Origin: Candidatus Heimdallarchaeota archaeon
GTDB taxonomy: Archaea > Asgardarchaeota > Heimdallarchaeia > JABLTI01
DNA length: 43,594 nucleotides
Reading direction: 5' to 3'
NCBI GenBank assembly: GCA_019058275.1
Contig: JAHLVW010000110.1
Span: forward strand, 1-43,594
Shown here piece by piece: positions 8,001-13,130 of this stretch. Made by a program: the position numbers and the translations under genes. Each line of letters starts with the position of its first letter. Position 1 is the stretch's first letter. The notes below the pieces were generated by a model. The model was not told the DNA's origin. It ran no database searches and saw only the letters and a list, made by a program, of their open reading frames with translations.

Positions 8001-8030
8001 GAAAAAGGCATTAGGGAATAAGCCTTTTTC
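8001..8030. terminator. hairpin between convergent genes
   Basis: GAAAAAGGC (8001-8009) / GCCTTTTTC (8022-8030) inverted repeat. Confidence 0.45.
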
Positions 8031-8758
8031 TAAAATTTTCTCTTATTGTTGAACATGTTAGATAACGGACGTAAAACATTTGATATTATTTCATTCAAAT
8101 TCTTACCGTTGATAATGACACCAGCAGCGCTTGTTTTTACTACTTCACCTTTATTGTTGGAAACTCTGACGCCTTCTTCTTTTGATATTTCAACGTAAGA
8201 TTTCTTCTTTTTATCACAAACGATGACTTCTTTGTCATCTTTACCAATTGCTATGATTGATTCATTATCTTTTATTAGAATAAATTCTTCGGGTTCAAAA
8301 AGATAGATATAGAAATCTAAGTTATCAAGCTTATCTGGCCATCTGTATCGTTTACCATTTACAGTAAACTTTCCACGTATATTTTCCTGAGAATTATGCA
8401 TTCTCTCAAAATATCGATAAGCTTCAATTTCGATTTTTCTGAAATCTCTACCAGATAGTTCATCTGATTTAGTATTTGAAAAGTCCAAATCATCGCATTT
8501 GAGAAAGGCTTGTTTGGATAACTTTTCAATTGGATCTCCAACAGCACCTTTGCTTGTATTTACGATTGTATCAGAACCGAGATAGATATCACCAGTAATA
8601 TAATATCCAATTGTTTCAAAAGAACATGTTTCAACTACTGGAAAGATTTTCGATCTCTTGCCTAGTGTTACCATTGTATCCTCTAGATCTGCAATAATGG
8701 CTGTTCGGGTTATTTTTAGAGGTTCATTATCTAACTCTAATTTCATTCTTTGTAGCAA
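8030..8758 (-). CDS. hypothetical protein, co-transcribed with the ArsR-like gene
   Basis: 242-aa ORF starting 7 nt after 8766..9824; AGGAG RBS; beta-rich C-terminus. Confidence 0.7.
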   Translation of the reverse strand: MLQRMKLELDNEPLKITRTAIIADLEDTMVTLGKRSKIFPVVETCSFETIGYYITGDIYLGSDTIVNTSKGAVGDPIEKLSKQAFLKCDDLDFSNTKSDELSGRDFRKIEIEAYRYFERMHNSQENIRGKFTVNGKRYRWPDKLDNLDFYIYLFEPEEFILIKDNESIIAIGKDDKEVIVCDKKKKSYVEISKEEGVRVSNNKGEVVKTSAAGVIINGKNLNEIISNVLRPLSNMFNNKRKF

Positions 8759-8765
8759 CTCCTAA

Positions 8766-9824
8766 TTACTTGATTCTAACATCGAATTCTTCATCAGAAT
8801 CCATGTTTTTACCTTCTACTTTTGCTCGTTTTTTTTCCTCGAGATATCGCATGAATTGTATTTCAGCAAGTTTTAGAGCTTCACGACCACGTGTAGTTAA
8901 TAGATACCTACCTCGAACAACTTCTTGAGTAACAAATTTCACTTCTTTATCTAGAAGTCGATCCATATGGTGTTTGAAGGTTCCACCTCGAAGGCTAGTG
9001 ATATCACTTAACTCTTTTTGGTACTTGGGAGCTTTCTCTAATTCCTTAAGAATTTTTAATCTATTATGATCACCAATGGCTGAGACAATTTTGGAACCAA
9101 TTTCATAAAATTCTTCAAGCTTTTTTTCAGGAATTCGGGGACCAATTGTTAGATGAACATCCCTGGTGATTTTGGAACCAATTTCTTTGCCAATTTTACC
9201 AATATCATCACCAACAATCTTTATCTCTTTACCAATGTCACCTGCACTTCTGACTGTAATTCCCATGGATGTCTTAATGCTATCTGCTACTGAAGCGAGA
9301 ATAGATCTTGTATAATCACCAAGTCTTACTTCTAAATCAGATGTAATTCCTTCGATGTCTTCATCCATGTCCAAATCCCAAGTATAGCTAGAATGCTTCT
9401 GGTCTCTTAGGGCATGCTCTTTCTCTCTTATTTTTCGCTCTTTGTTACGAAGTTCTTTACGAATGTGGTTAAATTCTCGTTGCTTGCTTTGAAGATCCCT
9501 TTGTTCTTCAAGAAGATTACTTTTCATAGCATGTAATTCTTTGGAAATATCTTCACGTTTTCTTCTGAGCAATTCTCTTTCCTTAGCAATTCGCTTCTTC
9601 TGTTCGGAGGTTAGCTTCCTAGCTTCTGCAACTCGATAACTGTGTGGTCTAGCTGGTAACCCGGGCTTTGGTGGTAGTGGGGGCATAGGTTCATTACCTT
9701 TTATGAAAGGATCAAAATCATCATATTCCTCAAAATCGGTACCTTCAACATCAAGTTTGTCTAACTTCTTTCGAAGACGCTCGATTTCTTTTTCTAGTTC
9801 TTTCTTTCTTTTATCTTTTGACAA
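8766..9824 (-). CDS. ArsR/winged-helix transcription regulator with long N-terminal coiled coil and Pro-rich segment
   Basis: C-terminal SAIGDHNRLKILKEL...ELSDITSLRGGTFKHHMDRLL...GRYLLTTRG; GAGGTG RBS before a TTG start. Confidence 0.8.
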   Translation of the reverse strand: MSKDKRKKELEKEIERLRKKLDKLDVEGTDFEEYDDFDPFIKGNEPMPPLPPKPGLPARPHSYRVAEARKLTSEQKKRIAKERELLRRKREDISKELHAMKSNLLEEQRDLQSKQREFNHIRKELRNKERKIREKEHALRDQKHSSYTWDLDMDEDIEGITSDLEVRLGDYTRSILASVADSIKTSMGITVRSAGDIGKEIKIVGDDIGKIGKEIGSKITRDVHLTIGPRIPEKKLEEFYEIGSKIVSAIGDHNRLKILKELEKAPKYQKELSDITSLRGGTFKHHMDRLLDKEVKFVTQEVVRGRYLLTTRGREALKLAEIQFMRYLEEKKRAKVEGKNMDSDEEFDVRIK

Positions 9825-9845: not shown

Positions 9846-9950
9846 TTAATATATGGCACCTGCGATTAGTGCCATTTTTATTCTAGTTTGCTCCATTTCT
9901 TTCTTGATTTCTTCTTTGATTTTCTTCTTTTTTTCTGGCATTTTTTTCAT
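9846..9950 (-). CDS. 34-aa small ORF (MKKMPEKKKKIKEEIKKEMEQTRIKMALIAGAIY), not in the ORF track
   Basis: AAGGAG RBS immediately upstream; ends 21 nt before the ArsR-like gene. Confidence 0.6.
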   Translation of the reverse strand: MKKMPEKKKKIKEEIKKEMEQTRIKMALIAGAIY

Positions 9951-10119
9951 AACTCCTTAGAAAGTATTACACTTTTCTATACATAAGTTACATAAAATAG
10001 TATATAAATATTTGTAATTATCTTACATTGGAGTGTAATTACTCATTCTCACGAAAAAATGATAATGATCACCTAAAGCACTTAAAATAGCAATTACTTC
10101 AATATAGTACTCTTCTCGT

Positions 10120-10133
10120 AAAGTTTTTAATAG
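10120..10133 (+). promoter_or_regulatory. BRE/TATA-like promoter for the putative ncRNA
   Basis: AAAG-TTTTTAATA about 20-30 nt upstream of the first helix of the structured element. Confidence 0.45.
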
Positions 10134-10151: not shown

Positions 10152-10476
10152 GAGTGAAGAAGCGAATCATAACAACTTAACAAATCACGCTTCTCGTCTC
10201 AATCTTAGAGCACACTCTGAGAACCTTTGGATAAACACCAGTTGCAGCGGGTTAGGTGTTTATTGAGCCACCAAAGAAAAAAGAGAAATCTTCTTACTTA
10301 CCCGAAAGAAGAGAATGGTGCTCGATTATGATGAGACGTTAAGAGCCGGAACACAATAGCACAACTCAGATGAGTCCTAGAATGCCAAACCGTATGTTAT
10401 TGTGTTAATTAGATGGTTGGACCCTAAGCCCATTTTCTCTATTGGTGCTTATTCCAACCATCTAACTGGTTTACTT
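10152..10476 (+). ncRNA. putative ~325-nt multi-domain structured ncRNA of unknown family
   Basis: No ORF; GC richer than the flanks. Nested helices: 10158-64/10188-94, 10195-201/10332-38, 10208-13/10318-23, 10225-30/10271-76, 10231-39/10255-63, 10289-95/10306-12, 10344-49/10466-71, 10350-61/10395-406, 10409-21/10453-65. G-U pairs favour the + strand. Confidence 0.7.
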
Positions 10477-10655
10477 CTATTATGGATTAACTGGGAATTT
10501 ATACTAAATGTTATTAGATTTAAAAGGCATGAGTTTTTTTAGTGAATTCACTAATATTAGTAAGATGCAGAATTGACAATTTATAAATACAATGATTTAC
10601 CATTTCAGATATAAATAAAATAGAGATTGTCAAATATAACTATTATAAGAGACTG

Positions 10656-13130
10656 GTGGCGTTTGACTTGGTTGTAGCTTTAAAAACAAAAGTAACAAAG
10701 GTATGTGTCGTGCTAATTCCTTTGATGCTATCTCTTGTAGCATTTCTAGTGCCACCTACAACAGTCAGATTGGAAATAGATGATTCTCAAAATGCAATTC
10801 TTAATTCGCAGGAAGTACAAACTAGTCTTACTGCAAGTATAAGTACAGAAAGTGAAACATCTAGAATCAAAGTTCAAAATTCTGATTCAATTAAAGATGA
10901 GCTTGGTCCAAATGCAGTAACCTCACCTATAATTCTTCGTGGAAATTACTTTACAGCAACAGGAAGACTTGAAGATACGCTTACAGGTTTAGGAGTTCCT
11001 GATGAACCAATCAAGATATTTTGGAATCACTTTTCGTGGACTGAATATGAAACTGATCGTTTTAATCTTGAAAGCAATTACCTGATTGGTCAAGGTCAAA
11101 CTGATAGTAATGGTGATTTTTCAATAACTACGAGAGATTCTGATCATTCTAAAGCAACAGGAGTTATAACTGTCTATTCTGTTTTTGAAGGTGATCCATT
11201 ATTGGGTCCTATTGAACAGAATCGTAACTTTACTACTGACATTGTTGATTGCTATGCAACAATCAGTATGAACTTAGCAGTAAATACTACAATAGTTCGG
11301 GAAGGAAGATCATTCATTGCTGATGCTAATTTGGTGTTTGATAATGGTACAACCCCTATAGTTGCTGCTGAAGGTGAAAACACAACCTTTGCTTGGTTAG
11401 GGAATATTACTGAAGTTACAATAGCAAGTTATGTAGCTAGCTCTACTTTCTTAGTTCCAATTGGAACAGCTGTAGGTGTTTTTTATCCTTTAGAAGCTTC
11501 GTTTAATGTCTCAATATTAGGATTGCCTCATGTAGTTGGAGATATCACATCTGAAGCTGATATAGGAACAGTAGCTGCTGATTGGGCAAATGCGTCTCGT
11601 TCTATTTTTGTTTTCACTGGTGCTGGTATTGTTTTTGATATTGATGAACCTGTAATACCAGGACCAGGGCAAAATCCTGAAGTTTTACGTGGTGAGACTC
11701 GAATAACTGTTTCAGGAATTTTATCAGATAGTGATGGATTACCTTTTGGATATGCAATTAGTGTTGATGTAAAAGTAAGCGGTATTATAATAATAACTGA
11801 CACAACCGATAATGATGGTAATTTTTCAATTCCCTTCATCATAATTAATTCATCTTTAGCTGTAGGTGTTCATGGTGTTAGTGTTAATGCTTCTGCAGGG
11901 GAAGGTATTAATGCTATTATTGAAACTGAAAATATAACTATCCTTGGGAATTCAAGTATGACTACTCCTACTATAACAGGTCCTCCTGTTGTTACTCCTT
12001 CTTTAGTTCTAGCTATGCCCAATGAAACTGTTCGGATTTTAGGTATAGTAAGAGATGTTTATGGTACTAATGATCCAATACCAAACATGCCTATTTCCGC
12101 ACAATGGGAAGATTATGGATTAGTATATAATACAATCACTTCCGTATCCGGATCATATACCTTCGATGTACAAATACCTGATACAATTAGTCCTGTTGAA
12201 AGAAATGGAACAGTCAATATAGTAACAAGTAGCACTCAATATTATACTGTATCTAGTTTAAGTGTCAATGTAGATGTTTTTACCAATAGTTTCTTCAACA
12301 TTTGGATGAACGCTTCAACAATAGTTGGTGGGTCTACTGTAACAAATCTTGGAGGAAATACACTTTATACTAATACTAATTTTACATTTCAAGGTTTGAT
12401 TAATGATCAATTTAATCGTCCTCTTGAAGACAGAATAATCGAATTTATAATCAATGGGAGTGTTGTAGACTCTGATAATCTAAATGCAAGCGGAGGTTAT
12501 AGTTATAATTTCAATAGTATCAGTGCTGGAGTTATTGCTGCGAATTATAACTTAACAATAGCATTGGTTGATGATCCATCCATGGCCTTCAGTTATTGGG
12601 TTCGATTTGAAGATCCCCCTCAACCATCTATTACTCCAACAACTCCTACTAATACAACACCAAATGGTGATTTTAATATGAATTTAGCAATTGGAATATT
12701 TGTAACAATGGTATCACTCATTGTAGTTGTAGCATCTGTCTATGCCTTTGGTCGTTTTAGAAGAACGAAGAAGATGGCAGCAGATATGGTTAATGACTAT
12801 ATGAATTTACCAGCAATTTTGAATCTGATAGATGAATCCGAAAGAGCAAAGGATTTCCGTCGAGCAGCAATTCTGTGTTATCGTGCTTTTGAAGCAATTT
12901 GTATGCAGGACTTACGTATACTTAATGCTAGAACACAATCACCTCGAGAGCTTGCTCGAATAGTAGCTTCAACTAATCGTATCCCTGTAAGAGATGTAAC
13001 AATGTTGGTTATGCGATATGAAGAAGCTCGATTTAGTGACCACAAAATAAACAAAAATTCATTCACACTCGCAAAGCAAGCTTTGGATAATGTGCAGTTA
13101 GCTTTAAGACAAGAACCAAAAGTAGGTTAG
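10656..13130 (+). CDS. large membrane-anchored surface protein (Ig-like beta-sandwich repeats, TM, cytoplasmic DUF4129-like domain)
   Basis: N-terminal signal/TM; repeated 'TGRLED..G', 'TDSNGDFSI', 'TDNDGNFSI' motifs; many N-x-S/T sites; Pro/Thr linker; TM; SQSPRELA/YEEARFS-type DUF4129 motif (TQSPRELAR...YEEARFS). Confidence 0.8.
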   Translation: MAFDLVVALKTKVTKVCVVLIPLMLSLVAFLVPPTTVRLEIDDSQNAILNSQEVQTSLTASISTESETSRIKVQNSDSIKDELGPNAVTSPIILRGNYFTATGRLEDTLTGLGVPDEPIKIFWNHFSWTEYETDRFNLESNYLIGQGQTDSNGDFSITTRDSDHSKATGVITVYSVFEGDPLLGPIEQNRNFTTDIVDCYATISMNLAVNTTIVREGRSFIADANLVFDNGTTPIVAAEGENTTFAWLGNITEVTIASYVASSTFLVPIGTAVGVFYPLEASFNVSILGLPHVVGDITSEADIGTVAADWANASRSIFVFTGAGIVFDIDEPVIPGPGQNPEVLRGETRITVSGILSDSDGLPFGYAISVDVKVSGIIIITDTTDNDGNFSIPFIIINSSLAVGVHGVSVNASAGEGINAIIETENITILGNSSMTTPTITGPPVVTPSLVLAMPNETVRILGIVRDVYGTNDPIPNMPISAQWEDYGLVYNTITSVSGSYTFDVQIPDTISPVERNGTVNIVTSSTQYYTVSSLSVNVDVFTNSFFNIWMNASTIVGGSTVTNLGGNTLYTNTNFTFQGLINDQFNRPLEDRIIEFIINGSVVDSDNLNASGGYSYNFNSISAGVIAANYNLTIALVDDPSMAFSYWVRFEDPPQPSITPTTPTNTTPNGDFNMNLAIGIFVTMVSLIVVVASVYAFGRFRRTKKMAADMVNDYMNLPAILNLIDESERAKDFRRAAILCYRAFEAICMQDLRILNARTQSPRELARIVASTNRIPVRDVTMLVMRYEEARFSDHKINKNSFTLAKQALDNVQLALRQEPKVG

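Follow-up and report, generated by a model that had tools for sequence, protein, structure and literature searches.

An RNA gene in the gap between two protein-coding units

The window (the whole 43,594-nt stretch of DNA that was analysed) contains an intergenic gap bounded on one side by an ORF ending at 9824 on the minus strand and on the other by an ORF starting at 10656 on the plus strand. A preliminary description had placed an ORF-free, structured stretch of ~325 nt at 10152-10476 in this gap. Indeed, the gap holds no ORF of at least 50 aa, and the stretch is real, but its likely bounds are slightly narrower, ~10156-10472. The locus comprises the following features.

8766-9824, minus strand: upstream gene encoding a coiled-coil/ArsR-type HTH protein, divergent from the RNA
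10118-10132, plus strand: BRE and TATA box of the RNA, conserved 31-35 nt before the 5′ helix, with a flanking spacer that is 27% identical
10156-10472, plus strand: RNA gene, likely extent, ~317 nt
10567-10589, plus strand: separate conserved BRE/TATA-like site of the downstream operon, 70% identity versus 28% in the spacer
from 10656, plus strand: DUF4129-DUF4350-MoxR-DUF58 operon, on the same strand as the RNA, which lies 180 nt upstream

What lies in the gap is a stand-alone structured RNA gene outside every catalogued RNA family tested, and it shows conservation, synteny, a single copy, covarying helices, a conserved promoter and an invariant loop.

Distribution and conservation

The host belongs to the Heimdallarchaeia family JABLTI01 (f1 below), which we take to be the Gerdarchaeales, bearing out the earlier guess of an Asgard archaeon. 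JABLTI01 is the name of both a family and an order of Heimdallarchaeia in GTDB (PMC13617573). BLASTN, a motif scan and two covariance models (CMs) agree in detecting the RNA in 10 of the 12 genomes of the family. Both negative genomes have contig breaks inside the flanking genes, so the RNA is present wherever the f1 locus is assembled (10/10). Metagenomes yielded three more distinct copies, giving 13 distinct homologues in all. Homologues with covariation, whose absence would have counted against the preliminary description, do exist. The element is single-copy in each genome and occupies the same locus in every carrier genome, rather than being dispersed like a MITE. All ten genome copies lie upstream of the same operon, and the HTH gene was also seen in nine, the tenth contig ending before it. 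One locus, L040 (DATKZI01), comes from a record titled Bathyarchaeia; since the locus is the same as in family genome G009, the title is probably a mislabel.

Searches of 71 other genomes of the class with CMs of both domains under strict filters returned no copy, nor did CM searches with the filters off beside HTH orthologues in other families, and viral contigs, phages and plasmids gave no match. Two phylum-level matches were at chance level, the more convincing one lying inside a proteasome-beta-like coding sequence. Orthologues of both flanking genes do occur in sister Heimdallarchaeia families that lack the RNA.

Within f1, the RNA is a conservation island with sharp edges. Across the 13 copies, identity amounts to 68% in domain I, 74% in domain II and 100% in a 22-nt loop, compared with 27-28% in the spacers and 47% in the HTH coding region. 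Even where the neighbouring proteins have diverged to 50-70% identity, the 22-nt loop is unchanged at every position.

Promoter, ends and expression

The TATA-like box that had been pointed out before the RNA was confirmed at 10124-10132, where it is present in all homologues. Since the 5′ helix follows the BRE/TATA element at a conserved distance of 31-35 nt, we infer a start at ~10156 and a length of ~290-320 nt; by archaeal promoter spacing, the start is predicted to fall at ~10155-10158. On the 3′ side, conservation stops at 10472. The spacer beyond it (10473-10565) is only 28% identical and varies in length among homologues. It carries a U-tract at 10534-40 in this genome, and the homologues have T-rich runs after the 3′ end. 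The second promoter-like site at 10567-10589, together with these T-rich runs, argues for a stand-alone gene, and a discrete stable transcript running from 10156 to ~10472 is very probable.

Metatranscriptome coverage, to which the preliminary description had looked for evidence of expression, falls within the predicted bounds. Contigs from four metatranscriptome-labelled marine-sediment runs match at ~96-97% identity over 10175-10472, 10175-10416, 10204-10386 and 10226-10392, none of them reaching beyond the predicted bounds and the first stopping precisely at 10472, the conserved 3′ boundary. As contigs reveal neither strand nor transcript ends nor abundance, and two of these runs bear the flag 'probably DNA', they hint only weakly at transcription; the uncovered flanks were not taken as evidence.

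Two junction domains supported by covariation

The plus strand folds with a free energy of −99.3 kcal/mol (z −6.7, with 0 of 100 shuffles as good), compared with a z of −3.3 for the minus strand, and z lies between −3.2 and −6.6 for every one of the 13 homologues. The structural elements, all on the plus strand, are listed below.

10156-10194: P0, 5′ hairpin with a base of 6-7 bp (10158-64/10188-94), found in the MFE fold of most homologues
10195-10338: domain I, consisting of P1 and P2 followed by a three-way junction with a long and a short arm
10195-10204/10330-38: P1, 7 of 9 pairs compensatory
10208-13/10318-23: P2, 3 of 6 pairs compensatory
10215-18/10282-85: P3, long arm, 1 of 4 pairs compensatory
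10225-30/10271-76: P4, long arm, 2 of 6 pairs compensatory
10264-70: 7-nt bulge of the long arm, between P4 and P5
10231-39/10255-63: P5, long arm, 5 of 9 pairs compensatory
10289-94/10307-12: P6, short arm, 2 of 6 pairs compensatory
10248-52/10300-04: kissing loop L5/L6, 5 bp between the long and the short arm of domain I
10344-10472: domain II, a three-way junction closed by P7 and bearing hairpins P8 and P9
10344-49/10466-71: P7, re-forming in individual folds of nearly all homologues
10350-61/10395-406: P8, 3 of 10 pairs compensatory
10369-10390: 22-nt apical loop of P8, GAUGAGUCCUAGAAUGCCAAAC, invariant, being identical in 13 of 13 distinct homologues
10409-21/10453-65, with inner helix 10424-31/10444-51: P9, 6 of 12 pairs compensatory

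With an alignment that had not been fitted to structure, 89% of the cells in the 73-pair model are paired, versus 39-44% when the model is slid. Compensatory changes were found in 32 of the 73 pairs, a count that none of 500 shuffles reached but that overstates the number of independent events, since the 13 sequences are relatives from one family. RNAalifold independently recovers P1, P2, P5, P6, P8 and P9, and the helices of domain I have 85-97% of their cells paired. P0 has an A/U-rich loop of variable length and sequence and is nearly absent in L046; its 3′ strand is well conserved.

Most of the helices proposed in the preliminary description are borne out by this model. The perfect 13-bp stem, the 12-bp stem with one G-U and the 9-bp stem, which correspond to the outer part of P9, P8 and P5, are completely paired in the sequence (13/13, 12/12 and 9/9), and P5, P8 and P9 are among the helices with compensatory changes. 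The junction-closing AGCCGG/CTGGTT helix pairs at 6/6 positions, and the junction with two long hairpins that it was said to close is that of domain II. The two terminal loops described as complementary (5/5 paired) form the kissing loop, all five pairs of which are kept in 11 of the 13 homologues, with U-A/U-G variation. In the divergent genus g2 copy (L017), the kissing loop is compensated (C-G to U-A) and offset by three columns in the MAFFT alignment, and in L016 it is lost. Three further pairings fared less well. The weak pairing of the 5′ and 3′ ends and the complements 10216-21/10365-70 and 10282-88/10434-40 all exist in this sequence, but homologues keep only 1-3 of 5, 2-5 of 6 and 2-5 of 7 pairs, respectively, and all three are coincidences of this one genome. 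The 5′ domain had also been drawn partly wrongly.

The RNA falls outside known classes

Comparison with Rfam 15 gave no match at the gathering threshold for the RNA, the only such matches in the window being tRNAs, in line with the earlier failure to recognise the family. Among the Rfam models, IMES-1 (RF02034) alone scored noticeably, reaching 24.1 bits in the 5′ domain (E 0.008). Since this is far under the gathering score of 81, is absent in eight homologous loci and implies pairing in conflict with the covarying helices, we regard it as a chance match.

The genome encodes a canonical RNase P RNA (C22:3491-3829, 136 bits) and a full-length SRP RNA (C74:6866-7172, minus strand, 94.9 bits). 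Because both lie on other contigs, the RNA does not stand in for a housekeeping RNA that the genome would otherwise lack. The earlier statement that it bears no signature of either class was upheld as well: it matches neither model, and it shows no helix-8 motif or conserved end pairing as in archaeal SRP RNA and no P4 pseudoknot as in RNase P/MRP RNA. The SRP RNA of this genome, at 94.9 bits against an Rfam cut-off of 96.5, may be missed by standard annotation.

Other classes were likewise searched for. ARAGORN detected no tmRNA, and reading frames that run through the loop share neither length nor stop codon among the homologues. No model of C/D or H/ACA guide RNAs matches, and no box D, ACA or conserved CUGA stands at the required positions. 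A hammerhead was considered and rejected, as all 13 homologues have CAAA for GAAA, stem II forms 2 of 4 pairs and no Rfam match was obtained. No reverse transcriptase (RVT_1) was found in this genome, which is 93% complete. Ro60/TROVE was not found in the genome either, and the RNA's ends are unpaired in homologues, which argues against a Y RNA. In the literature covered, which included few subscription journals, we found no description of this RNA or of any ncRNA family in the lineage. In kind, it resembles the orphan ornate ncRNAs, being a stand-alone gene with a covarying multi-domain structure.

An invariant loop at the tip of P8

The 22-nt loop, which the preliminary description did not mention, is the strongest functional clue in the RNA and is likely its functional site. 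It is mostly unpaired in the consensus fold, invariant columns make up only ~18% of the rest of the RNA, and exact matches in GTDB and metagenome collections come from this locus only. No family genome contains a second near-full-length match or complement of the loop. Predicted duplexes with the genome's own 16S and 23S rRNA are at shuffle level, and those with the start regions of 3,401 genes are no better than shuffles. Because the stems vary while the loop does not, and because neither a long complement nor a better-than-shuffle duplex was found there, the remaining explanations are a protein that recognises the loop and a tertiary fold. A short peptide translated from AUGs in the loop is unlikely, since synonymous positions are invariant and the stop is not conserved.

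A candidate scaffold for a protein or RNP partner

The account we tentatively favour is that of a stable trans-acting ncRNA, specific to JABLTI01, which would serve as a scaffold and offer its loop to a protein or an RNP. The RNA would be transcribed separately from its own promoter, from 10156 to ~10472. Domain I would be held rigid by the L5-L6 kissing loop, and domain II would hold out the 22-nt loop to dock a conserved cellular partner, which would recognise it through shape and sequence rather than long base pairing. That partner would most likely be an RNA-binding protein or RNP, with the RNA serving as scaffold or decoy, perhaps by analogy with the binding of KhpA/KhpB by raiA-motif RNA or of RNA polymerase by 6S RNA. 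A docking scaffold fits best because the helices tolerate change and the loop none, with no clear nucleic-acid target. On the other hand, no partner has been found, and the flanking genes also exist where the RNA does not; the kissing loop is missing from one homologue (L016), the 13 related sequences come from one family, the expression data consist of contigs, two of the four runs being flagged as probably DNA, and an invariant loop would equally fit a ligand pocket or a catalytic core. As for the stable RNA of unrecognised family proposed in the preliminary description, the results support it: neither a confident Rfam hit, nor dispersed copies, nor a lack of homologues or covariation came to light, and transcription is so far only hinted at.

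Base pairing offers another route to invariance, as a fixed target would impose it. The loop could then be a guide or chaperone for tRNA, rRNA or mRNA, in the manner of an archaeal sRNA or of eukaryotic U3/snR30, which we consider unlikely. Its best support is a perfect 10-bp complement in the D-arm of tRNA-Gly(UCC), kept in 7 of 7 family genomes; a match of this length arises in 1.6% of shuffles among tRNAs, but in 7% against tRNA plus rRNA (p ~0.07). Moreover, since the same site occurs in a family without the RNA (G086), it appears to be generic. (In the f2 genome G053, a tRNA-Gly arm at the start of contig C85 is identical to the f1 type and perhaps mis-binned.) A pairing with tRNA-Leu(UAG) was discarded, being private to this genome and not conserved. 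The shuffle-level duplexes with rRNA and gene starts and the lack of C/D or H/ACA hallmarks weigh further against a guide.

One more pairing deserves mention. The loop (10369-10391) forms 9 bp + 6 bp with a bacterial-type 23S rRNA fragment in L072 (near position 416), a fit equalled in 2 of 300 shuffles. In bacterial 23S rRNA, the paired strands lie on either side of the central segment of the peptidyl-transferase loop. This fit was found post hoc and is probably due to chance, and a guide to the peptidyl-transferase region was rejected, as the Asgard 23S rRNA has 3 mismatches in 14. Bacterial-type 23S fragments occur in two Heimdallarchaeia MAGs, L072 (G082) and L079 (G091), probably as contamination.

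Alternatively, the loop and its junction might form a ligand pocket or a catalytic core, making the RNA an orphan aptamer or ribozyme. A run of 22 bases that never vary and mostly stay unpaired is typical of a tertiary core, and the register resembles that of the hammerhead core and of the fluoride aptamer's 3′ half. Yet up to an E value of 10, no model of a hammerhead, fluoride or other riboswitch or ribozyme gave a match. Hammerhead G12 is replaced by C and U4 mostly by A, stem II is unable to form and no expression platform is seen, leaving this explanation improbable.

The ornate fold, the conserved kissing loop and the lack of a linked protein gene would also be expected of an RNA-only homo-oligomer or particle held together by intermolecular kissing loops, as in OLE, ROOL and GOLLD. 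Such an assembly seems quite improbable here: the RNA is smaller than the 659-nt ROOL (PMC12286853), the kiss is lost in L016, an intramolecular kiss appears geometrically possible and the invariant loop would be left unexplained.

We also considered a cis-acting 5′ leader or riboswitch of the DUF4129-DUF4350-MoxR-DUF58 operon, which is always syntenic, on the same strand and 180 nt downstream of the RNA. Against it stand the second conserved promoter-like site between the RNA and the operon and the unconserved, length-variable, T-rich spacer, and no metatranscriptome-labelled contig crosses the 3′ end; a leader is therefore very unlikely. A diverged paralogue of SRP RNA or RNase P/MRP RNA, which the similar size and the loose resemblance of the kissing-loop domain and two-hairpin junction to the SRP Alu and S domains might suggest, is highly implausible given canonical copies of both RNAs on C22 and C74, the missing model matches and signature motifs, and domains that lie side by side rather than nested. 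Finally, a reverse-transcriptase template RNA (telomerase-, retron- or DRT-like) or a mobile-element remnant is hardly credible, as no RVT_1 was found in the 93%-complete genome, the loop of the 5′ hairpin is unconserved in length and sequence, and neither a second genomic copy of the loop or element nor a viral, phage or plasmid match was found.

Likenesses to known RNAs and significance

Apart from SRP RNA, RNase P RNA and multi-hairpin guide RNAs, hardly any stand-alone structured RNAs of about this size are known from archaea. Archaeal SRP RNA (RF01857) and RNase P RNA (RF00373) are, like the Heimdallarchaeial RNA, ~300 nt long, single-copy and equipped with their own promoter, and SRP RNA also has an Alu domain with kissing loops and a junction that bears two hairpins, but the signature motifs and topology of both are absent. 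The likeness to archaeal C/D and H/ACA guide RNAs lies in a hairpin presenting an invariant single strand and in a C-box-like word at the start of the loop; unlike them, the RNA has no box D, K-turn-closing stem or ACA box, and no complement in its own genome reaches clear significance.

Among bacterial RNAs, OLE, ROOL and GOLLD are likewise stand-alone, heavily paired and poorly understood in function, with conserved kissing loops; they differ in being bacterial and larger (ROOL env-120 has 659 nt), whereas the present RNA has no Rfam match (PMC12286853 for the bacterial RNAs). The raiA motif RNA of bacteria (PMC12968392) resembles it by functional analogy only. There is no sequence or CM match between the two, and in contrast to raiA, the RNA described here is archaeal and confined to one family, its two junction domains lie side by side and its apical loop is invariant.

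The RNA founds a family of its own, restricted to a single family of Asgard archaea and solidly supported by comparative data; in kind it resembles the bacterial orphan ornate RNAs and, at best guess, works like them. A bolder and rather doubtful proposal would rank it with SRP and RNase P RNA as a large housekeeping RNA of a third kind, on which an undescribed RNP of this lineage would be built, either as its scaffold or as its catalytic core, with the loop acting on the translation or RNA-processing machinery. If so, Heimdall-group archaea would have evolved new multi-domain RNP RNAs of their own; the bearing on eukaryote origins is limited, because the RNA is restricted to one family. A two-domain RNA fixed across a whole family with an unchanged loop marks a conserved interaction that has not yet been looked for, and its 317 nt, 13 natural variants and covariation-backed model make it amenable to in vitro study.

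The HTH gene and its surroundings

The HTH gene (8766-9824, minus strand) is mostly single-copy and occurs in 63 of 83 genomes of the class, usually followed by an ORF of 220-240 aa; in this window, the ORF that follows it (8030-8758, minus strand) has no Pfam match. The two genes form a conserved, uncharacterised pair. Directly upstream of the HTH gene lies an unlisted 34-aa Lys/Glu-rich ORF (9846-9950, minus strand) with a Shine-Dalgarno-like site, and small ORFs seem to be present at the equivalent place in sister-family loci, too. The divergent promoter at 9988-10027 is 80% identical and carries TGTAA/TTACA inverted repeats around its TATA box, which are likely an autoregulatory operator; similar words also occur upstream of orthologous HTH genes in sister families. 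In family f2 (L113, L115, L118, L120, L124 and L126), a conserved intergenic motif of ~30-40 nt, located ~600-700 nt upstream of the HTH gene and unrelated to the RNA by CM, occupies the position that the RNA has in f1 and could be a promoter, an operator or a small RNA.
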